Shown here: piece after piece, positions 1 to 11,484 of the stretch
Layout of the letters: each line of letters opens with the position of its first letter
How positions within the stretch are numbered: the first letter of the stretch is position 1
Origin: a virus
Lineage: Duplodnaviria; Heunggongvirae; Uroviricota; Caudoviricetes
DNA length: 11,484 nucleotides
IMG/VR virus record: IMGVR_UViG_2778261514_000009
Reading direction: 5' to 3' (one strand)
The notes under the pieces: model-generated
What the model was told of the DNA's origin: nothing
Database searches by the model: none
What the model saw: only the letters and a program-made list of their open reading frames with translations
Position numbers and translations under genes: made by a program

Positions 1-1218
1 ATGAACAAACTGAGCGATACCTTGCTAAGGAAACTTCATGGTAAGCCAGCGGAGAAAAACACGTTTTATAGTGATGGCGGAAACCTGAGCGTGAAATATT
101 TAACATCAGGGAAATTGACCTGGTATTTCACATACAGGGCCGGAACGGGAAGGGAGACACGACCCGAACGCATTAAGCTGGGAAGTTATCCTGATCTGAG
201 CCTGAAAGCAGCCAGGGAAAAAGCCGCACAGTGTCGCACATGGCTGGCTGAGGGGAAAAATCCACGTCATGAGATGAATTACACCGTACAGGAAGCGTTA
301 AAGCCCGTAACGGTTGGCGATGCGCTCACCTACTGGCTTGAGTATTACGTAAAGGAAAACCGCGTGGATTATATCGCCCTGAAAAGGCGACTTAATAATC
401 ACGTAATACAGCAGATTGGTGCTATGCCGCTGGATAAATGCGAGCTACGGCACTGGCTGGCCTGTTTTGACCAGGTGGCAAAGCGAACGCCTGTTACTGC
501 CGGATTCGTGCTACAGGCGTGCAAACAGGCGCTTAAGTTCTGCCGTAGGCGGCGCTATGCAATCAGCAACGTTCTGGACGATCTGAACGTGGCGGACGTT
601 GGGAAAAAACCGGATATAAGCGAACGTGTCTTAAGTAACAAAGAACTTGGCGAATTATTGCAGGCACTGGACAAAAAAATATTCTCCCCTTACTACGTCG
701 CGTTAATCCGCCTCCTGATTGTCTTCGGAGCCAGAACGGTAGAACTGAGGTTATCGGAGATCGGGGAGTGGGATTTTACGGAAATGCTATGGACCGTTCC
801 GAAGGAGCACAGCAAAACGAAGGTCGCAATATTCCGGCCCATACCGGAAGCGATCCTGCCGTTCGTCACGCAGCTGGTGGAGCAGAACAGGCACACGGGC
901 TTATTGCTGGGGGAAGTGAAACAGGAGGCCAGCGTATCGCAGTATGGAAGATTAGCGCACAGGAGGCTTAATCATCCTCACTGGTCACTACATGACATCC
1001 GGCGCACCTTTACAACGATGCTGAACGATTTAGGCGTGGATCCTCACGTCGTGGAGCAGCTTACAGGCCACCAGATGCCAGGAATGCAGCGAGTTTATAA
1101 TCATTCCCGTTATCTGGATGCTAAACGCAATGCGCTGGATATGTGGACGGAGCGGTTAGGGATACTGGCGGGAACACATGAAAACGTAACCACGCTACCA
1201 GTAGCCAGAAGAAAATAA
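1..1218 (+). CDS. int: Tyrosine recombinase, P4-type phage integrase (405 aa; ORF begins at window position 1)
   Basis: N-terminal arm-binding-like region (YSDGGNLSVKY...WYFTYR) and C-terminal catalytic region (HDIRRTF...LTGHQ...VYNHSRYLD) typical of P4-family integrases; followed by an AlpA gene as in P4-like and PICI elements. Confidence 0.9.
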   Translation: MNKLSDTLLRKLHGKPAEKNTFYSDGGNLSVKYLTSGKLTWYFTYRAGTGRETRPERIKLGSYPDLSLKAAREKAAQCRTWLAEGKNPRHEMNYTVQEALKPVTVGDALTYWLEYYVKENRVDYIALKRRLNNHVIQQIGAMPLDKCELRHWLACFDQVAKRTPVTAGFVLQACKQALKFCRRRRYAISNVLDDLNVADVGKKPDISERVLSNKELGELLQALDKKIFSPYYVALIRLLIVFGARTVELRLSEIGEWDFTEMLWTVPKEHSKTKVAIFRPIPEAILPFVTQLVEQNRHTGLLLGEVKQEASVSQYGRLAHRRLNHPHWSLHDIRRTFTTMLNDLGVDPHVVEQLTGHQMPGMQRVYNHSRYLDAKRNALDMWTERLGILAGTHENVTTLPVARRK

Positions 1219-1582: not shown

Positions 1583-1771
1583 GTGTTAAGCACTGATCGG
1601 TTTATACGTGAAAAAGAATGCGAAAAACTAACCGGCCTTAGCCGTACGTGTCGCTACCGCCTGGAAAAGGCCGGACAATTCCCATCACGTCGTAAACTTG
1701 GCGGTCGTTCCGTTGGCTGGTCTTTATCCGAGGTTCTGGCCTGGAAGGATAGCTGCAAGGCAGTTCATTAA
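1583..1771 (+). CDS. alpA: AlpA-family transcriptional regulator / excisionase-like HTH protein (62 aa, GTG start)
   Basis: Pattern TGLSRTCRYRLEKAGQFP...LGGRSVGWSLSEVLAW matches the AlpA (Phage_AlpA) family; SD AAGGGGG lies 6 nt upstream of GTG at 1583. Confidence 0.85.
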   Translation: MLSTDRFIREKECEKLTGLSRTCRYRLEKAGQFPSRRKLGGRSVGWSLSEVLAWKDSCKAVH

Positions 1772-2040
1772 TCACGCTGGCGGCACGCAGCCGCCACACA
1801 TCAATCATCTGAACACAGAGCTATAACCATGAAGATTGAATATACGCCAGAACGTAGGCGGGGATTCGTTCGCCCTGGTGAAACTGAAAAACAACAAAAT
1901 TGGGGTTTTTCAGGCATAACAAAAAGCGCCCAGTTACCTGAGCGCCTTTGTGAACGATTAACCTGCTGCGAAAAAATTGGATCAGTGCAGGGGAATTATA
2001 TCAACTGTGTGAAGAAGCGCCACTATTGCCGGATAACAGG

Positions 2041-2069
2041 CAAAGAAAAGGCCACCAGTCACGGTGGCC
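2041..2069 (-). terminator. Rho-independent terminator for the minus-strand two-gene unit
   Basis: On the minus strand: GGCCACC-gtgact-GGTGGCC followed by TTTTCTTTG, about 80 bp past the stop at 2149. Confidence 0.45.
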
Positions 2070-2148
2070 CTGCGACACAAATTTCGCGTTATCCCCAACG
2101 CATGAGCATCGCCAACAATGCCACATTTGCGGCTGGTGGGCAATGCTA

Positions 2149-2322
2149 TCAGTCTGGTTCAGTTCGTTGCCATACCTGCAATGAGCGCTTTTCCCTGTAC
2201 TCTTTAAGGAATTGCTCAAGGGCAAAAGCACATGGCGCGAATCTTTCTGATTCATGCTCTATCTTTCTGCGCCGTCTTTTCCGTGCCGGTGATAATGTTT
2301 TGGTCAATTCTTTATCGGTCAT
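2149..2322 (-). CDS. Small highly basic hypothetical protein (57 aa from ATG at 2322; alternative start 2337)
   Basis: ORF track 2149..2337(-); internal ATG has AGGA 8 nt upstream; contains RKRRRRK basic tract; lies 57 bp downstream of the RHH gene and upstream of the terminator. Confidence 0.35.
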   Translation of the reverse strand: MTDKELTKTLSPARKRRRRKIEHESERFAPCAFALEQFLKEYREKRSLQVWQRTEPD

Positions 2323-2379
2323 TGTGTTGTCCTGCATAGCAATGCGCCGTAATACCTCACACCACGGCGCTGATAGTGA

Positions 2380-2559
2380 TTATTCTGATTCTTTGGCCTT
2401 GCGGCGCTGGCGGCGTTTGATCTCGCCTTCAAGTGCCGAAACGATAAATTGCCCTGTACTTTCGCCATCTTCCTTTAAATTTTCTACAGCATCAGCTATT
2501 GCGTGTGGTACTCGAGCCTCAAGCTTTTTGGATTTTGCATTAACTGCTTTTGTTGCCAT
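2380..2559 (-). CDS. Ribbon-helix-helix (CopG/Arc-like) DNA-binding protein, 59 aa
   Basis: Internal ATG of track ORF 2380..2700(-) with SD GAGGAAA 6 nt upstream; sequence KKLEARVPHAIADAVENLKEDGESTGQFIVSALEGEIKRR fits the strand-helix-helix pattern; faces a divergent promoter/operator region. Confidence 0.5.
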   Translation of the reverse strand: MATKAVNAKSKKLEARVPHAIADAVENLKEDGESTGQFIVSALEGEIKRRQRRKAKESE

Positions 2560-2580
2560 ATCTGATTTCCTCGTTATTAG

Positions 2581-2662
2581 GTGGCTGACAGTATACACAC
2601 AAGAAAACGGAAAAACACTATTGACGTGGCTGACACCCGTTACTAATATAGTGGCTGACACC
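2581..2662. promoter_or_regulatory. Divergent promoter/operator region: sigma70-like TTGACG-17-TAATAT (2621-2649, + direction) overlapped by three direct repeats of GTGGCTGACA
   Basis: Repeats at 2581-2590, 2626-2635 and 2651-2660; the second overlaps the -35/spacer and the third sits at the predicted start site; located between the minus-strand RHH gene and the plus-strand operon. Confidence 0.45.
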
Positions 2663-2753
2663 TTTGTCAAGGTAATCGATGAAAAGACAAAGCCCCGCAA
2701 GTGTCGTTACCACTCGCAGGGCTTCTAACCAACAACGTAAACTAGGAGCCGTT

Positions 2754-2954
2754 ATGGTTGCTGTAAATCATATACCACACCTTGTACACACACAAACGGC
2801 CTTTGTGTGGCGTTTTCTGGCACTGAGTGCCGGAGAATCTCAAATCATCCACGTAACCGCCTGGACGGAACGCGAAGCGCGTAGCCGTTGCCCGTCCGGT
2901 TGTGTTGCTGTATTCGCCGCCCGTATTCGTCAGGAGGTGTGCCATGTGCAATAA
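2754..2954 (+). CDS. Hypothetical small protein (66 aa), first gene of the replication-module operon; possibly Icd-like
   Basis: Internal ATG of track ORF 2679..2954 with SD AGGAG 6 nt upstream; the Icd-like resemblance is from memory only and unverified. Confidence 0.45.
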   Translation: MVAVNHIPHLVHTQTAFVWRFLALSAGESQIIHVTAWTEREARSRCPSGCVAVFAARIRQEVCHVQ

Positions 2955-3183
2955 AACCACACCGGACGCAGCCGCCGCCGCGCTCACTACGCTAATGCAT
3001 GCGCTGATTGATATTTCTGTTATTGCTGACAGGGCGCATAAGCACGCCACCAATGAAACAGAATATGCCGGGGCTTTCGTTCCTCATTCGCTGGCGGTTA
3101 TGCAACTTAGTGCTGATATGGCGCTGAATGAGGCTAAAGCCATCCTGATTGCTGATTGTGAAAATGGGGGTGGTTATGCGTGA
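2944..3183 (+). CDS. Hypothetical small protein (79 aa)
   Basis: ATG at 2944 with SD AGGAGG 7 nt upstream; start overlaps the previous stop (translational coupling). Confidence 0.45.
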   Translation: MCNKTTPDAAAAALTTLMHALIDISVIADRAHKHATNETEYAGAFVPHSLAVMQLSADMALNEAKAILIADCENGGGYA

Positions 3184-3409
3184 TGATCGTTTTAATTCCC
3201 TGAAACAGGAATTTTCCGGCGTTCCTGATGATGCGGCTGATGCGCTTTCGTCAATGCCAGAGCTTATTAGAGCGGCTTTTTTCTTACTTTCCACGAGAGA
3301 ATATAAATCAACGGGGCTTGATGTACTGAATATCGCCGCCGATTATGCGGAATATGTGGCAGAGGCGCATTACAGAAGAAAATTTCCTGAGGATGTAAGC
3401 CATGCGTGA
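3176..3409 (+). CDS. Hypothetical small protein (77 aa)
   Basis: ATG at 3176 preceded by GGGGGTGG; overlaps the upstream stop at 3181-3183; the track's TTG start at 3149 is less likely. Confidence 0.45.
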   Translation: MRDDRFNSLKQEFSGVPDDAADALSSMPELIRAAFFLLSTREYKSTGLDVLNIAADYAEYVAEAHYRRKFPEDVSHA

Positions 3410-3635
3410 TATTTACCACGAAACAATAGACCGCGCATTTCTTGCACTTTCTCACAGTGAAAACATGCTGGAAATATTGCGCATATGGCTTGAAACACTT
3501 GGCGACAATGAACGCGACAAACAAAAATCAAGAATTGCCACGGCATTAATAACGCTTCTTGAGCCTGTAATAATGGAACTGCAAGAAATAGATCTATTGC
3601 ACGACAGATATAAAGAACAGCACACCGGAGAATAA
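3402..3635 (+). CDS. Hypothetical small protein (77 aa)
   Basis: ATG at 3402 with GAGGA upstream; overlaps the previous gene's 3' end by 8 nt. Confidence 0.5.
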   Translation: MRDIYHETIDRAFLALSHSENMLEILRIWLETLGDNERDKQKSRIATALITLLEPVIMELQEIDLLHDRYKEQHTGE

Positions 3636-3640
3636 AAATA

Positions 3641-3940
3641 ATGAAACTTAAATATTCTGGCTTAACTGCCAGTGGCAACACTCACCCTAAATTTACGCGC
3701 GGTGATATTTACCGCGACCAGTACGGCGGCACGGTAATGATTAAGGGCGTGGAAGAACGGCGCGTAACCTACCGCCGTGAAGGCTACGAATATGACTGCG
3801 TGATGCCTGTTTATCAGTTCCGGCGTGATTTTTCTCTGGTACAGGCAGCGCCCCGCAGTAAACCAACCAGCAGGGAGAAAGCACGCGCCAATATTCAGGA
3901 AATAAAAAAGATACTTAACGTATTCAGGGGTAAAAAATGA
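3641..3940 (+). CDS. Hypothetical protein (99 aa) immediately upstream of and overlapping the primase gene
   Basis: ATG at 3641 with GGAG upstream; its stop overlaps the primase start (ATGA at 3937-3940). Confidence 0.5.
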   Translation: MKLKYSGLTASGNTHPKFTRGDIYRDQYGGTVMIKGVEERRVTYRREGYEYDCVMPVYQFRRDFSLVQAAPRSKPTSREKARANIQEIKKILNVFRGKK

Positions 3941-5691
3941 AACTGGCACCGAACGTAAAACAGCAGTCACGCGGCATAAAACACAAAGAAACAGAAGTCA
4001 TTATTTTTGCGGGTAGTGATGCCTGGTCACACGCGAAACAATGGCAGGAACATGATGCGCGTATGGCCGGAGATAATGAGCCTCCTGTGTGGCTTGGGGA
4101 GCAGCAGCTATCCGAACTGGATAATCTGCAAATTGTGCCGGAAGGCCGAAAATCAGCACGCATATACAGGGCCGGATATCTTGCGCCAGTAATGATAAAG
4201 GCGATTGGCCAGAAGCTGGCGGCGGCAGGCGTACAGGATGCAAATTTTTACCCTGATGGTATGCACGGTCAGAAGGTGGAGAACTGGCGCGAATATCTGG
4301 CCCGTGAGCGCCAGAATCTTTCTGATGGTCTGGTCATTGAGCTTCCGGTAAAGCAAAAGGCGCAACTTTCGCAGATGGCGGACAGTGAGCGCGCGCAGCT
4401 GCTTGCCGATCGCTTTGATGGCGTTTGCGTACATCCTGAAAGTGAAATCGTTCACGTATGGCGCGGCGGGGTATGGTGTCCGGTCAGCACAATGGAACTT
4501 AGCCGCGAAATGGTGGCGATCTATTCAGAGCACAGGGCCACTTTCAGCAAGCGCGTAATCAATAACGCCGTGGAAGCGTTAAAAGTTATTGCCGAACCAA
4601 TGGGCGAGCCGTCCGGCGATTTGCTGCCGTTCGCCAATGGTGCGCTTGACCTGAAAACGGGGGAATTTTCCCCGCACACGCCGGAGAACTGGATCACCAC
4701 GCACAACGGCATTGAGTACACGCCACCAGCACCAGGGGAGAACATCCGCGATAACGCGCCAAACTTTCATAAATGGCTTGAGCACGCAGCCGGAAAAGAC
4801 CCGCGCAAGATGATGCGTATATGTGCCGCGCTGTACATGATTATGGCGAACCGGTACGACTGGCAGATGTTTATTGAGGCCACCGGAGATGGCGGGAGCG
4901 GTAAAAGTACATTCACGCACATAGCCAGCCTTCTGGCAGGGAAACAGAACACGGTAAGCGCTGAAATGACGTCGCTTGATGATGCTGGTGGACGTGCGCA
5001 GGTTGTCGGGAGTCGTCTTATCGTCCTGGCTGACCAGCCGAAATATACAGGCGAAGGAACGGGCATCAAGAAAATCACGGGCGGTGACCCCGTGGAAATT
5101 AACCCGAAATACGAAAAGCGTTTCACGGCTGTAATCAGGGCGGTGGTGCTGGCGACCAACAATAACCCGATGATATTCACCGAACGGGCCGGAGGTGTGG
5201 CACGTCGTCGCGTGATTTTCCGTTTCGACAATATCGTCAGTGAGGCCGACAAAGACAGGGAGCTACCGGAAAAGATCGCGGCTGAAATCCCTGTCATTAT
5301 CCGCCGATTGCTGGCGAACTTTACCGACCCTGAGAAGGCACGGGCTTTACTACTGGAACAGCGTGACGGTGATGAAGCTCTGGCAATAAAGCAACAGACG
5401 GATCCGGTTATTGAGTTTTGCCAGTTCCTGAATTTTCTGGAGGAAGCACGCGGCCTGATGATGGGCGGCGGTGGCGATTCAGTGAAGTACACGACCAGAA
5501 ACAGCCTTTACCGCGTCTATCTGGCGTTTATGGCGTACGCAGGCAGGAGCAAACCGCTAAACGTAAATGACTTTGGCAAGGCTATGAAGCCAGCCGCGAA
5601 AGTTTACGGACATGAATATATTACGCGGAAAGTTAAGGGAGTAACGCAGACTAACGCAATAACAACAGACGAGTGCGACGCGTTTTTATAA
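3937..5691 (+). CDS. pri: Replication initiation primase/helicase (D5_N plus SF3-type P-loop NTPase; P4-family primase C-terminal region), 584 aa
   Basis: Walker A GDGGSGKST, the downstream hydrophobic strand with acidic residue (LIVLADQP) and the characteristic ...VEINPKYEKRFTAVIRAVVLATNNNP...RRRVIFRF block; followed directly by an iteron region, as in PICI pri-rep/ori modules. Confidence 0.88.
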   Translation: MKLAPNVKQQSRGIKHKETEVIIFAGSDAWSHAKQWQEHDARMAGDNEPPVWLGEQQLSELDNLQIVPEGRKSARIYRAGYLAPVMIKAIGQKLAAAGVQDANFYPDGMHGQKVENWREYLARERQNLSDGLVIELPVKQKAQLSQMADSERAQLLADRFDGVCVHPESEIVHVWRGGVWCPVSTMELSREMVAIYSEHRATFSKRVINNAVEALKVIAEPMGEPSGDLLPFANGALDLKTGEFSPHTPENWITTHNGIEYTPPAPGENIRDNAPNFHKWLEHAAGKDPRKMMRICAALYMIMANRYDWQMFIEATGDGGSGKSTFTHIASLLAGKQNTVSAEMTSLDDAGGRAQVVGSRLIVLADQPKYTGEGTGIKKITGGDPVEINPKYEKRFTAVIRAVVLATNNNPMIFTERAGGVARRRVIFRFDNIVSEADKDRELPEKIAAEIPVIIRRLLANFTDPEKARALLLEQRDGDEALAIKQQTDPVIEFCQFLNFLEEARGLMMGGGGDSVKYTTRNSLYRVYLAFMAYAGRSKPLNVNDFGKAMKPAAKVYGHEYITRKVKGVTQTNAITTDECDAFL

Positions 5692-5699
5692 TTTTTTGT

Positions 5700-5935
5700 A
5701 ATTGCTGTCTACCCTGTCTACCTGAGTAAAGAAAAATACATTTAATTCAGTGCATTAAGTTAGGTAGATAGCCTTTTTTTACTGTCTACCCACTATCTAC
5801 CCTCTCTACCTGATTTTACCTGAATCAGACAGGGAGGTAGACACGGGGTAGATAGTGGATAAAAGCACTCTACCCCGCTGAAAGCCGTGCCATTACTGGC
5901 ATGAGGGCCACTAAGGTAGATAAGGTAGACAAGGG
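5700..5935. repeat. Putative replication origin: about 11 iterons of GGTAGA(C/T)A in two inverted clusters around an AT-rich spacer
   Basis: Reverse-orientation copies (..GTCTACC..) at 5707, 5716, 5784, 5796, 5804, 5869; forward copies GGTAGATA/GGTAGACA at 5763, 5836, 5847, 5915, 5924; AT-rich stretch 5724-5760; sits immediately 3' of the primase gene. Confidence 0.6.
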
Positions 5936-5979
5936 GAGGCACAACTCAAAACTTTTTAAACGAGGGGGTAAAAATAAAT

Positions 5980-6258
5980 ATGCACACTTCAGGGAAATTT
6001 AATAAATCACTCAAAAAACGCAGAGACAGAACAGAACCGAAATATCGCGCGTTAGACATGACAGAGCACGCTTTAAAGGTGGCAATCAGAACGATAGACC
6101 GCCACGCGGGGGAAGGATACGCGAAAGCACATCCCGACCTGATAAGCGCATTCATGACCACGACGGCGGCAAATTTTGCCACGCTGACAGAGCGGGAGAT
6201 TGCCGAAGCGGAACAGGTAACAACAATCAACGTTAAAACCGGAGAGGTGGAATCATGA
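5980..6258 (+). CDS. Hypothetical protein (92 aa)
   Basis: ATG at 5980 with GAGGGGG upstream; stop overlaps the SSB start (ATGA at 6255); no family recognised. Confidence 0.45.
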   Translation: MHTSGKFNKSLKKRRDRTEPKYRALDMTEHALKVAIRTIDRHAGEGYAKAHPDLISAFMTTTAANFATLTEREIAEAEQVTTINVKTGEVES

Positions 6259-6665
6259 CAGCACAGATAGCCGCTTACGGGCGGCTGGTGGACGACCCGC
6301 AGGTAAAACAGACCAGCAAGGGCACACCGATGACGCTGGCGCGTATGGCGGTCCCCCTTCCGTGCAGCCAGGCAGATGACGGAACGGCGACGATGTGGTT
6401 ATCCGTCCTGGCATTTGGCAGACAGGCCGAAGCACTGGAAAGGCACCGCAAGGGTGAACTCCTGAGCGTGGCGGGTAACATGCAGATCAGCCAGTGGACT
6501 GGGCAGAACGGAGAAACGCGGCAGGGTTATCAGGTTATTGCAGACAGCGTAATCAGTGCCCGTGCGGCACGTCCTGGCGGGAACAGACGCAAAACCACAG
6601 GCACACAGGGTAATCAGCCACCAGCGGGAGGCGATGACCCTTACGGTGATGATATTCCGTTCTGA
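6255..6665 (+). CDS. ssb: Single-stranded DNA-binding protein (SSB homologue, 136 aa)
   Basis: OB-fold-like N-terminus, Gly/Pro/Gln-rich linker and C-terminal tail ...DDPYGDDIPF matching the conserved SSB acidic tip (E. coli SSB ends ...DFDDDIPF); SD GGAGAGGTGG. Confidence 0.85.
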   Translation: MTAQIAAYGRLVDDPQVKQTSKGTPMTLARMAVPLPCSQADDGTATMWLSVLAFGRQAEALERHRKGELLSVAGNMQISQWTGQNGETRQGYQVIADSVISARAARPGGNRRKTTGTQGNQPPAGGDDPYGDDIPF

Positions 6666-6675
6666 GGGGGTGAGG

Positions 6676-6948
6676 ATGGTACATGACCGCATAGCGGAGG
6701 AACTCGAGGCAAAAGGCTTTTACCGGAGGGCGGCGGCACGATGGGGTGAAGTCATGCAACTGGTGGAGACAGACAAGGAACGGCATCACATCACGATGCG
6801 ACGGCTGGAATGTTCAAGGAAGGCACAGAGGGCACCGGAGCCGCCGGATAATTTCGGAGACCTGAAAAAGGCAGTCGATCGCACTTATGCCGAAATGGGT
6901 ATAGATGGTGCTGGTGATGAAATATGGCGCAATTACCAGGACAGCTAA
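6676..6948 (+). CDS. PerC-family transcriptional activator-like protein (90 aa)
   Basis: N-terminal block MVHDRIAEELEAKGFYRRAAARWGEVM resembles the PerC/Pch family signature as I recall it; SD GAGGGGG 5 nt upstream of ATG 6676; the track's longer 6556 start overlaps ssb out of frame. Confidence 0.55.
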   Translation: MVHDRIAEELEAKGFYRRAAARWGEVMQLVETDKERHHITMRRLECSRKAQRAPEPPDNFGDLKKAVDRTYAEMGIDGAGDEIWRNYQDS

Positions 6949-6954
6949 TCAAAC

Positions 6955-6978
6955 AGCCGGAGAAATACGGCTTTTTTT
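6955..6978 (+). terminator. Rho-independent terminator after the PerC-like gene
   Basis: AGCCG-gagaaata-CGGCT followed by a T7 run, 7 nt after the stop codon. Confidence 0.5.
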
Positions 6979-7074
6979 GCACCAGTTGAAACGGTATGGC
7001 GCATTACCGGGTTTTCGTCACGGTCAGGCATAGTTACTATCTGAAACAAACAGACACAACAGAGGAAAAAAACA

Positions 7075-7299
7075 ATGCCGATGAAATTTGATGAGATATT
7101 AAAACAGCGTGATAAATACCATGCTGACAACATGGAGACGATGAGCATCAATGATTACCGCGCATTCCTGGAGACGGGCGCACTGATTGAAAAGGATCAG
7201 CATGGTTTTGTGAGATGTGCTCTATCCGGTGAAATGCTGGCGGTAAATCCTGAACAGATAGATGCATTGATAGAATTTCTGAAAGAGATCAGAGACTGA
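7075..7299 (+). CDS. Hypothetical protein (74 aa)
   Basis: Strong SD (GAGGAAAAAAACA-ATG); flanked by terminators on both sides, so it looks like a monocistronic unit; no family recognised. Confidence 0.5.
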   Translation: MPMKFDEILKQRDKYHADNMETMSINDYRAFLETGALIEKDQHGFVRCALSGEMLAVNPEQIDALIEFLKEIRD

Positions 7300-7318: not shown

Positions 7319-7389
7319 AGCCGGAGCAATCCGGCTTTTTTGCGCCCAAAAAAAGCCCGATAAGGTCAGAGGGTTCTTATCGGGCTTTT
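7319..7389 (+). terminator. Tandem terminators: AGCCGGA-gcaa-TCCGGCT plus T-run, then a 12-bp-stem hairpin flanked by A-run and T-run (bidirectional)
   Basis: Read directly at 7319-7341 and 7347-7389. Confidence 0.6.
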
Positions 7390-7439
7390 GCATATGAGGT
7401 TTTTGGATGCACTGGCGTTCGTGATCGGGATAATCATTT

Positions 7440-7517
7440 CATAATTTGCAACATAACTCAATATCATTGCATAAAATGCAATTCTGATTATAATCAGGAC
7501 TGGATAAACATCCAGTT
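7440..7517 (+). promoter_or_regulatory. Capsid-operon promoter region with three palindromes and a TTGCAT-16-TATAAT promoter
   Basis: TTGCATaaaATGCAA (7467-7481), perfect 14-bp palindrome CTGATTATAATCAG (7484-7497) overlapping the -10 TATAAT (7489-7494), and ACTGGATaaacATCCAGT (7500-7517). Confidence 0.4.
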
Positions 7518-7550
7518 ATGATTTTTTTAGTCGAAGAGGAATTTCTTACT

Positions 7551-7757
7551 ATGGCTGAAGAGAAAAAAGGCGGTGTTTCGGTGTACATAAGCCCCGAAAT
7601 CGTGGAGGTGCTCAAGCAGCGCCACAAAAAAAACTATGAAGCTGGCGTTGCGGCTGGACTGGATCCGCTGATGACGCCGGAGCCGTCGATAGGTTCACTT
7701 GTGCGATCTTATTTACTTGCGGCGCTTGGGATGCACAAAAATTATGGGGGCGAATAA
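7551..7757 (+). CDS. Hypothetical small protein (68 aa) coupled to the major capsid gene
   Basis: ATG 7551 with GAGGAA upstream (the track's 7518 start lacks an SD); its stop overlaps the capsid gene start (TAATG). Confidence 0.5.
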   Translation: MAEEKKGGVSVYISPEIVEVLKQRHKKNYEAGVAAGLDPLMTPEPSIGSLVRSYLLAALGMHKNYGGE

Positions 7758-8812
7758 TGGCAGTCAAAGCAATAGCACTTAACACACACCAGCTTTTCGC
7801 GTACCTGAATCGCGAGGATATTGCGGAATTTAAATTTAGTCCGCTGTTTACCGCGCTGTTTTTCCCGAACGTGGCGACATTCAACACGCAGGACATCATG
7901 TTAGATAACCTGGATATTGAAGAAGTCACTATGTCGGCGTTTTGTTCGCCTATGGTTGGCAGCCAGGTTCAGCGCGATAAAGGGTACGAAACCAGCATTA
8001 TCCGCCCTGGCTACATGAAGCCAAAACACGAAATCGATCCATTAAAAACAATAATGCGCATGGCTGGAGAAGATCCGGCACAGCTTAACGATCCTACCTA
8101 CCGCCGTATGCGCCTGATTACTGGCAACATGCGCCGCCAGATAAATGCCATTAAGGCACGCGTTGAATGGCTGGCGGTGAATGCGGTAACGACCGGAAAA
8201 AACATCATTGAGGGCGAAGGCATAGAACGCTATGAAATCGACTGGAAGATACCGGAAAAAAACATCATAGAGCAGGCCGACGGTAAAAAATGGTCTGAGC
8301 AGGATAAAGACATACACGACCCAATATATGACATTGAACTATACGCAGATCAGGCAGGTTGCCCCGCCAACGTCATGATTATGGGCGTTGATGTATGGCG
8401 CATGTTACGCAGCTTTAAAAAATTCCGTGAACTGTACGATCTCTCCCGTGGTTCAGAATCCGCCGCAGAGCTGGCATGTAAAAACCTGGGCGAAGTGGTG
8501 AGCTTTAAAGGCTATCTTGGTGATCTGGCCCTTATCGTCTATTCCGGCAAATACACTGACAGCGACGGCACAGAAAAATATTTCCTTGAGCCTGATTTGC
8601 TTGTCCTGGGCAACACCAACAATAAAGGGCTGGTGGCCTATGGTGCGATTATGGATCAGGACGCAGTAAGAACGGGGGCAACGCAAAACATGTACTACCC
8701 GAAAAACTGGATTGAGGACGGAGATCCGGCGATTGAGTACGTGCAGACGCACAGCGCACCGCAGCCGGTTCCGGCAGATATTCGCAAATTTGTTACTGTC
8801 AAAATTGCTTAA
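7757..8812 (+). CDS. Major capsid protein, lambda gpE family (351 aa)
   Basis: Alignable along its length with lambda gpE as recalled: FKFSPLF, PGYMKPKHEIDP, EDPAQLNDPTYRRMR, WSEQDKDIHDP..DIELYA, VSFKGYLGDLALIVYSGKY, LVLGNTNNKGLVAYGAIMD, YYPKNWIEDGDPAIEY..HSAP. Confidence 0.9.
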   Translation: MAVKAIALNTHQLFAYLNREDIAEFKFSPLFTALFFPNVATFNTQDIMLDNLDIEEVTMSAFCSPMVGSQVQRDKGYETSIIRPGYMKPKHEIDPLKTIMRMAGEDPAQLNDPTYRRMRLITGNMRRQINAIKARVEWLAVNAVTTGKNIIEGEGIERYEIDWKIPEKNIIEQADGKKWSEQDKDIHDPIYDIELYADQAGCPANVMIMGVDVWRMLRSFKKFRELYDLSRGSESAAELACKNLGEVVSFKGYLGDLALIVYSGKYTDSDGTEKYFLEPDLLVLGNTNNKGLVAYGAIMDQDAVRTGATQNMYYPKNWIEDGDPAIEYVQTHSAPQPVPADIRKFVTVKIA

Positions 8813-8823
8813 CGGGGGATTCT

Positions 8824-9159
8824 ATGGACACTCCATACATTGAGTTATTTGCAGGCAGTCAGCAGGTCGCCACGACGCTGGTACATTTTGCCGCTGATGC
8901 TGGCGTTATTCAGGAATTTACCCCGCTGATGCTGGCGGACAATGGCGAGTTTAAGCCGTGGGATGGTCAGGAATCTGGCAAGGCTGTTTATCTGACTTCG
9001 TATCCTGTGGACACGTCAAAGCAGAAATCAGCACAGTGTTACAAGACGGGGATATTCAATATTGCCGCCGTTAACTGGCCTGAGAGCGTCGACACCGATG
9101 CGAAAAAATGCGCCGCCTTTGCGGGTTCCGGCGTATCCGTTCAGCCGCTGGCCCGATAA
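8824..9159 (+). CDS. Head decoration protein, lambda gpD-like (111 aa)
   Basis: Core matches lambda gpD as recalled (TPLMLADNGEFKPWDG vs TPLMLDTSSRKLVAWDG; CYKTGIFNIAAVNWPE vs FYKSGTFRYEDVLWPE; KKCAAFAGSGVSV vs KKRTAFAGTAISIV); SD GGGGG. Confidence 0.75.
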   Translation: MDTPYIELFAGSQQVATTLVHFAADAGVIQEFTPLMLADNGEFKPWDGQESGKAVYLTSYPVDTSKQKSAQCYKTGIFNIAAVNWPESVDTDAKKCAAFAGSGVSVQPLAR

Positions 9160-9171
9160 GCAGGGGGAACG

Positions 9172-9585
9172 ATGGCAACGAATGAAAGCATCATGACGCT
9201 ACCGCTGGCGAGTAAATTTAAAGCCGAAGCGCGGGCAATGGCTGACAGAGGTTTATCAACCTATGAGGCCGTATATCAACTAAACAAACTGGAAGAGCAG
9301 GACAAGCCGCGCGCTGATGCGATTATGGCGCTTCATGAGCATAAAGACTATCAGCCGCTGTTACGTGCAATGGCAAACGTGCCATGTATTAGCGTCGATA
9401 ATGCTCGTGAAATCCTGAACATGACCATAGAGCAGGAGCGCCCAAAGGTTGCACCAGAGCTTACCGCAGCCTTTGAAAACTTTATGGACATGCACAGCCC
9501 GCAAGCCGTATCAGCTGGCATGGCATACGATGGCAGAAACCAGGGCGATGACGGCGACATCGATCGCATACTGAAAACCATCTGA
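9172..9585 (+). CDS. Hypothetical protein (137 aa), last gene of the capsid operon
   Basis: SD AGGGGGAA 4 nt upstream; followed by a terminator; no family recognised. Confidence 0.5.
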   Translation: MATNESIMTLPLASKFKAEARAMADRGLSTYEAVYQLNKLEEQDKPRADAIMALHEHKDYQPLLRAMANVPCISVDNAREILNMTIEQERPKVAPELTAAFENFMDMHSPQAVSAGMAYDGRNQGDDGDIDRILKTI

Positions 9586-11325: not shown

Positions 11326-11472
11326 TTAGTTATATATAACAGCAATAAATAATGCGAGAATAAACGGCACGATGATCTCGGCGGCAAAACGGATACCGCA
11401 GAGAATAATGACCAGCATTCCCAACATAATGACGATTTTTAGGCCATTGAGCGTGATGATCGGCTTTGCCAT
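11326..11472 (-). pseudogene. Truncated 5' fragment of a host inner-membrane protein gene (N-terminus resembles TqsA/YdgG), ending in an island-derived stop; marks the probable right junction of the island
   Basis: Minus-strand translation from the window end: [52 protein letters not shown]; hydrophobic TM-like N-terminus matching my recollection of TqsA up to ...ALFIAV, then divergence and stop; flanking sequence is AT-rich and repeat-rich. Confidence 0.45.
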
Positions 11473-11484
11473 GCTTGTCCCCAT

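Follow-up and report, generated by a model that had tools for sequence, protein, structure and literature searches.

A PchE-type PerC homologue as a standard component of an EcCICFT073-type phage-inducible chromosomal island in Escherichia coli

Introduction

EPEC PerC, encoded on pMAR2, and the EHEC proteins PchA/B/C activate LEE1, and the group 1 Pch proteins are required for ler/LEE expression (PMC6265319). PchE-type proteins, which constitute group 3 in the published Pch grouping (PMC6265319), are reported not to act in this manner. As relayed in three reports (PMC6265319, PMC11773190, PMC6092414) that cite Iyoda 2004 and Porter 2005, PchE was without effect on LEE1 fusions or adherence, and according to PMC11773190, citing Porter 2005, LEE1-lacZ was unaffected by the PerC-like genes of the islands EcCIEDL933 and EcCICFT073. 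Other host loci do respond to PchE. In experiments that rely mostly on plasmid overexpression, csgD fell by more than 7-fold and csgA by over 280-fold, biofilm formation and HEp-2 adherence were reduced, eae and lpfA1 were decreased, and flhDC, fliC and motility were increased (PMC6265319, PMC7369912), while ler rose only about 2-fold (PMC7369912). Deletion of pchE resulted in a slight rise in Congo-red binding (PMC6265319).

Regarding mechanism, activation by PchA is wholly dependent on H-NS/StpA/Hha silencing and lowers H-NS occupancy; H-NS was not co-precipitated with PchA, and Fukui et al. favoured DNA-complex competition (PMC4764244). The proteins of the ANR family (Aar, Rnr, Cnr) are likewise small, with three helices and no DNA-binding domain, and make protein contacts with AggR-type activators and H-NS; Aar itself lacks DNA-binding capability and binds both AggR and H-NS (PMC5570504).

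The pchE gene of O157:H7 Sakai (ECs1588, also ECs_1588) lies in “prophage Sp7”, which corresponds to CP-933C / O-island 51 (PMC3378721) and was later characterised as the capsid-forming phage-inducible chromosomal island (PICI) EcCIEDL933 (bioRxiv 10.1101/2022.09.08.507074). O-island 51 has been described as a P4-integrase/AlpA/primase island in which pchE stands directly after ssb (PMC3378721). In O157 strain PA20 the pchE mRNA starts 10 nt upstream of ECs1586, and the gene is transcribed together with ECs1586 and ssb (PMC7369912 section 4.4). This start was mapped by RACE and RNA-seq, and expression was basal without induction, dropping 6-7-fold upon SOS/prophage induction (PMC7369912 section 4.4; PMC6265319). 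The prototype Gram-negative PICI is EcCICFT073, for which the capsid gene c1499 and the decoration gene c1500 have been described; it is induced by lambda and phi80 helpers through alpA, the expression of which is itself switched on by the helper phage, and is then transferred at high frequency (PMC6092414). PerC homologues in Gram-negative PICIs have already been described (PMC11773190, PMC6092414). One of these, EcCIMP1_025, is carried by the E. coli island EcCIMP1, which is without structural genes; this more distant PerC-like protein, with about 40% identity to its counterparts in EcCIEDL933 and EcCICFT073, silences LEE1 in C. rodentium, which shows that host virulence promoters can be targets of PerC homologues from PICIs (PMC11773190).

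Here, a perC gene and the island that carries it were analysed and compared with these systems.

Results

Organization of the island

The window analysed is the whole stretch of 11,484 nucleotides, which recurs with 100% identity in the chromosome of E. coli STEC17-183 (NZ_CP075652), and its features are collected in Table 1. An integrase gene, alpA and a pri-rep gene with an adjacent iteron origin occur together, without lysis or tail genes, in an element of the expected size (about 10-15 kb), and homologues of c1499 and c1500 are located behind a conserved late promoter, so that the window is an EcCICFT073-type PICI, bounded by two halves of tqsA. The first-pass annotation had proposed that perC is carried by a satellite, at the end of the replication module and before the capsid unit; both statements hold, with the primase gene, iterons, hyp, ssb and perC preceding the capsid gene in that order.

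Table 1. Features of the window (position 1 is its first letter).
Feature	Position	Strand	Remarks
int	1-1218		Pfam integrase
alpA	1583-1771		Pfam AlpA
small ORFs	1772-3640		
DUF4222 protein, RgdR-like, 99 aa	3641-3940	+	92% identical to RgdR/ECs1581
D5/P4-type primase	3937-5691		Pfam
TGTCTACC iterons	5700-5936		directly 3' of the primase gene
hyp92, 92 aa	5980-6258	+	opens the conserved hyp-ssb-perC cassette; homologous to Sakai ECs1586; phrog_1231
ssb	6255-6665	+	Pfam SSB, E=1e-15; immediately upstream of perC and co-oriented
Shine-Dalgarno-like purine-rich stretch GGGGGTGAGG	6666-6675	+	directly 3' of the ssb stop, before the perC ATG; read from the sequence
perC/pchE-type gene, 90 aa	6676-6948	+	ATG 6676, TAA 6946-6948; Pfam PerC, RefSeq
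intrinsic terminator AGCCGGAGAAATACGGCT + T7	6955-6979	+	seven bases 3' of perC
74-aa ORF (phrog_1957)	7075-7299	+	PHROGs match
two further terminator hairpins	7319-7342, 7351-7392	+	3' of the 74-aa ORF; precede the late promoter
palindrome ATTGCAT-N3-ATGCAAT (N3 = AAA)	7466-7482		overlaps the late promoter
late-operon promoter TTGCAT-16 nt-TATAAT	7467-7494	+	read from the sequence
palindrome CTGATTATAATCAG	7484-7497		overlaps the late promoter
68-aa ORF	7551-7757		
lambda gpE-like capsid	7757-8812		Phage_cap_E, E=1e-49
gpD-like decoration	8824-9159		phrog_49 match; allelic protein with Pfam HDPD in sister islands
137-aa protein, similar to the lambda gpC protease at its Nu3 end	9172-9585	+	PHROGs
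Nu1-like terS, 180 aa	9792-10334	+	
tqsA pseudogene fragment	11326-11484	-	second fragment at 1708-2613 of locus L001

The insertion site tqsA, which encodes an AI-2 transporter, is split by the island into two pseudogene fragments, whereas the sister islands are inserted between roxA and phoQ. The integrase accessions differ as well, being WP_000085276.1 here, WP_000085256.1 in CB9615 and WP_000085269.1 in CFT073.

Directly behind the primase gene, the iterons form a dense, AT-rich array (36% GC) of TGTCTACC / GGTAGACA units in both orientations, which is almost certainly the replication origin of the island. At the equivalent place Sakai Sp7 contains unrelated ATAACCCGC-type repeats along with a different primase, indicating that origin and primase are exchanged as one module. 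In the loci L043-L051, in which the PerC allele is identical and the capsid module the same, the D5/P4-type primase is replaced by a RepA-type AAA_25 helicase (466 aa), and the hyp-ssb-perC cassette thus has exchangeable modules on both flanks. The 74-aa ORF belongs to the conserved cassette of some islands and is absent from the loci L051 and L055 as well as from CFT073. RgdR/ECs1581 of O-island 51, to which the DUF4222 protein is 92% identical, is an activator of LEE1 and a repressor of motility (PMC3378721); two small regulators for which effects on the host are reported are therefore encoded on the island.

The protein encoded downstream of the decoration gene matches positions 495-567 of the 583 positions in a PHROGs head-maturation-protease family, namely its C-terminal part. 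The matching C-terminal region of lambda gpC is additionally produced as a protein of its own, the Nu3 scaffold, and the island may encode its own scaffold beside the capsid and decoration proteins. The Nu1-family small terminase gene occupies the place of rppA in EcCICFT073, and no similarity of its 180-aa product to RppA was detectable; this sub-type of island may redirect packaging with its own TerS rather than with an Rpp-TerS heterocomplex. An Rfam scan of the window at the gathering threshold returned no matches.

Family and allele of the perC gene

In the first-pass annotation the gene was assigned to the PerC family, and an HMM search was named as the check. This search was carried out and bears out the assignment: PF06069 (Pfam PerC) matches the 90-aa ORF with E=3.9e-43 and 146.1 bits, against a gathering cut-off of 22.6 bits, and residues 1-89 align with model positions 1-89 of 90, so that the match is full-length. 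The product also matches PHROGs phrog_994 (E=3e-47), and the gene coincides with the RefSeq CDS WP_000233304.1, “PerC family transcriptional regulator”, in NZ_CP075652; the same protein is annotated in O55:H7 CB9615. It is a single-domain protein that has the size of the family (about 90-105 aa) and its conserved N-terminal core. In an alignment of the window PerC with PchE, PchD, a PchABC-type protein and EPEC PerC, the residues M1, A7, L10, E11, G14, R17, R18, A19, R22, W23, M27, R36, R43, C46, G75 and R85 were invariant. The dN/dS of perC against three alleles is 0.19-0.22, indicating a constrained coding gene under purifying selection and ruling out a chance ORF.

Two other readings of the region were considered. 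A 130-aa GTG-started frame (6556-6948) that overlaps ssb was rejected, since the conserved homologues begin at the ATG at 6676. The 42-aa RefSeq “hypothetical protein” WP_001301569.1 (6905-7033, plus strand) overlaps the 3' end of perC and spans the perC terminator hairpin, and is probably a spurious call.

The window PerC is identical to Sakai PchE at 81 of 90 positions (90%), while identity decreases to 83% over 78 aa for the EcCICFT073 PerC-like protein (WP_000233305.1), 42% for both EPEC PerC and the PchABC-type protein, and 36% for PchD, which places it in group 3 (PchE-type) and sets it apart from group 1 (PchABC) and group 2 (PchD). Its location directly after ssb in a P4-integrase/AlpA/primase island is also that of group 3. 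The resemblance to the Sakai/EDL933 island extends beyond PchE, which is likewise of 90 aa, to the synteny of hyp, ssb, pchE, the 74-aa ORF and terminator; the differences are the nine substitutions in the protein, the primase/ori module, the promoter region upstream of the cassette, and the downstream module, which in Sakai consists of HK97-type capsid, protease, portal and terminase genes and here of gpE-type capsid, decoration and Nu1-like terS genes. Island gene order and late promoter region are as in EcCICFT073, of which the PerC-like protein differs in its length of 82 aa and its other C-terminal end, and which has no 74-aa ORF and encodes RppA where the window has the Nu1-like terS. 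With EPEC PerC and EHEC PchA/B/C, the Pfam family and the N-terminal LEAKGFYRRAA.RW core are shared, and the genes of those proteins lie in the perABC operon or in a lambdoid late region after the lysis genes. The gene studied here is an intact, already annotated PchE-type gene and a standard part of E. coli phage-satellite islands.

Transcription unit and late promoter

A small transcription unit, hyp-ssb-perC, follows shortly 3' of the primase/ori module and ends with perC; a terminator hairpin equivalent to that behind perC is also found in Sakai and in the loci L051 and L055. Near-identity to Sakai begins inside hyp92 (about position 6000), runs through perC, the 74-aa ORF and the first of its terminators, and gives way to unrelated sequence from about 7341. 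The pchE promoter mapped by RACE in O157 could not be placed at this locus, where the upstream sequence is unrelated owing to the different primase/ori module. As the cassette promoter differs from that of Sakai, the O157 expression pattern may not hold for this island.

The late promoter region (7400-7599) is AT-rich, with 36% GC, and is conserved in EcCICFT073 and in L051. In EcCICFT073 the counterpart of the second palindrome, CTGATTATAATCAG, is ATGATTATAATCAT, with changes on both arms, implying that the palindrome has been kept; it looks like a putative operator for a regulator. A perfect TATAAT overlapped by two palindromes suggests negative control of the late promoter. No 9-mers or longer words common to the gpE-type late regulatory region and that of the O157 cf-PICI were found in a k-mer search. 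Since homology with the O157 cf-PICI ends at about 7341, the late regulatory DNA travels with the capsid/morphogenesis module and apart from perC.

Distribution of the family

In the assembly collection, 18,214 blocks list WP_000233304.1, and among 5426 complete E. coli genomes 1592 contain all or part of the cassette, as judged by matches to a 1.4-kb ssb-perC-late-promoter query. When each species was represented by a single genome, 34 PerC loci were recovered, all but one in Enterobacterales, about half of which are int-alpA-(DUF4222)-primase-[ssb]-perC islands with D5-type or DUF927/Toprim primases; ssb is directly upstream of perC in 10 of these 34 loci from other genomes. The downstream genes in other genera are variable cargo, largely defence- or toxin-antitoxin-like (PRiA4_ORF3, SocA/Panacea, ABC-3C, HamA, AAA ATPases), and by tblastn none of the 34 other-species loci had the window capsid, Sakai cf-PICI or lambda-like modules downstream of the perC homologue. 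An exhaustive profile search of 1.84 billion representatives returned 217 proteins at E<=0.001, indicating that the family is small, and in a word-indexed search for homologues all relatives returned were from E. coli and at least 62% identical.

The contexts of the family comprise PICI-like islands, the lambdoid late region after lysis genes (PchABC-type), perABC on the EAF plasmid, ibrA/ibrB-pchD and T6SS clusters. Regarding the last, distant PerC-like ORFs (35-40% identity) directly follow a T6SS VasL/ImpA_N gene at three loci (L033, 7888-10594; L036, 7829-10237; L040), from the genera Apirhabdus, Mixta and Rosenbergiella, and in L033 a protein with sigma-70 region-4/HTH matches is encoded between the VasL/ImpA_N gene and the PerC-like ORF. 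We know of no description of this T6SS context for the PerC family.

Predicted fold

The AF2 model of PerC consists of five helices, with a pLDDT of 80 overall and above 90 for residues 10-50, and its confident N-terminal half forms a TPR/ANR-like helical hairpin. Helix-turn-helix matches were not found in PerC; a PDB sequence search gave only chance-level F-BAR matches (E of at least 0.01), hence no solved relative by sequence, and Foldseek against the viral library returned nothing at E<0.02 for the model. The resemblance to the ANR family is weak and lies below the family cut-off. The NCBIfam ANR model NF033650 matches residues 7-52 with 20.4 bits (E=3.3e-4), under the curated cut-off of 32 bits, so that PerC falls outside the family as defined by this cut-off, and the same model matches 9 of 22 PchE-type alleles at E<0.01, all below the cut-off (best E=5e-5). 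A phage “ANR family” model superposes on the PerC model at 0.7 A over 43 columns, with a Foldseek E-value that is not significant. ANR proteins differ in their size of about 60 aa and do not have the C-terminal 40 residues of PerC.

Discussion

The presence of a TPR/ANR-like hairpin together with the absence of helix-turn-helix matches makes it likely that PerC works by protein contacts that modulate nucleoid or regulator complexes. On the strength of the model, PerC would be a small all-helical adaptor. By analogy with PchA and Aar it would alter transcription indirectly, most likely through the remodelling of silencing complexes of the H-NS/StpA type or through contacts with other regulators. 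In the integrated state of the island it is probably expressed at a low level and may then be pleiotropic on AT-rich, H-NS-controlled host loci, as with the decrease of csgD/curli and the increase of flhDC/flagella seen for PchE, without being a LEE1 activator of the PerC/PchABC kind. We regard as reasonably probable the joint explanation that the protein is a group 3 PerC-family adaptor with such pleiotropic effects, no activator of LEE1 and probably no dedicated switch of the capsid operon. The first-pass annotation had also raised cross-talk with host virulence regulons. The reported effects of PchE indicate that cross-talk exists for close relatives and that it concerns adhesion and motility, not LEE activation, and the more distant EcCIMP1_025 silences LEE1; the idea is thus supported through the 90%-identical PchE (csgD/curli and flagella; PMC6265319, PMC7369912) and is not borne out in the form of LEE activation, for which published LEE1 tests of the closest relatives were negative. 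The nine substitutions relative to PchE could alter the activity of this allele. That the protein is nevertheless a LEE activator equivalent to EPEC PerC or EHEC PchABC is extremely improbable: the common Pfam family, the 42% identity to both and the origin of the host, a STEC isolate, would agree with such a role, yet LEE1 fusions and adherence are reported not to have responded to PchE or the EcCICFT073 PerC-like protein (PMC6265319, PMC11773190, PMC6092414), and ler responded only about 2-fold to overexpressed PchE (PMC7369912). An ANR-like anti-activator, which would inactivate an AraC/XylS-type or other activator, or H-NS, by binding, with repression as the net effect, is rather unlikely. 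The sub-threshold ANR_neg_reg matches in the PchE-type alleles and the superposition of the N-terminal helices on the phage ANR model are consistent with it, as are the repression of csgD, eae and lpfA1 by PchE (PMC6265319, PMC7369912) and that of LEE1-lux by EcCIMP1_025, for which its authors raise this idea (PMC11773190); but the score of 20.4 bits falls short of 32, EcCIMP1_025 is a distant relative (PMC11773190), no partner protein is known, and PchE raises flhDC and ler (PMC7369912). It is very unlikely that PerC assists island replication or the interaction with the helper phage as an accessory factor, binding for example SSB, primase or a phage protein, with the transcriptional effects arising as side-effects of overexpression. 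Such a role would fit the protein-binding nature of a TPR-like fold and the tight linkage that perC shows, throughout Enterobacterales, to the 3' end of the replication module (after ssb at n=10 loci, after a DUF927/Toprim primase elsewhere), but relatives occur in the non-replicative contexts perABC, lambdoid late region, ibrAB-pchD and T6SS clusters, and a transcriptional role has been demonstrated for group 1 Pch (PMC4764244). Overexpressing AlpA is by itself enough for the intact EcCICFT073 island to excise and replicate (PMC6092414); that island still has its perC homologue, so this result does not bear on PerC (PMC6092414).

It was further proposed in the earlier annotation that PerC activates the late operon of the island, that is, that it turns on the promoter at about 7440-7517 which drives the capsid, decoration and terS genes. 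In islands of the EcCICFT073 and cf-PICI types, perC lies just before the late module, which speaks for this idea, as does the AT-rich late promoter region, the type of DNA that a Pch-like counter-silencer could open, and no other late regulator was identified in the island. Against it, perC is closed by its own terminator, further terminators and a recombination break-point stand between the gene and the late promoter, and the perfect -10 under palindromes looks more like repression than activation. The kind of downstream module is not followed by the identity of the PerC allele: the exact allele (8 of 8 places) and an 88% allele both precede gpE/HDPD/Nu1 genes, a 93% allele precedes the HK97-type capsid-protease-portal-terminase set of a cf-PICI, and a 74% allele has no morphogenesis genes downstream but a Mor-like gene and then the island end. 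The gpE-type and cf-type late regions have no common motif, yet their PerC proteins are 90-93% identical, and in other genera cargo genes take the place downstream of perC. Moreover, pchE is on without induction and goes down on SOS induction, the opposite of what a late activator would display (PMC6265319), and it is AlpA that has been shown to activate the PICI cycle (PMC6092414). A generic anti-silencer would need no conserved site, which leaves the late-activator idea some room, but overall we consider it quite improbable, and PerC is probably not a dedicated activator of the capsid operon.

Conclusions

The perC gene is a known component of a known element: the layout of the island is that of the described EcCICFT073, and PerC homologues have been published for PICIs, so the finding as such is already known. 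In a broader and doubtful view, which we would not expect to be correct, PerC-type proteins would primarily be satellite genes that counter-silence H-NS on the AT-rich ori and late-promoter DNA of the island and keep it inducible, and/or reprogram the host surface (curli off, flagella on) for the encounter with a helper phage, with virulence cross-talk as a by-product and with PerC and ANR as one superfamily of small helical anti-silencers. The practical value of the result is modest. For annotation, an appropriate description of the gene is PchE-type (group 3) PerC homologue of an EcCICFT073-type PICI, and it should be counted neither as a LEE activator nor as a virulence marker. The worthwhile question is what PerC homologues do for their satellites and, related to this, whether the effects on curli and flagella of the host are selected or incidental.
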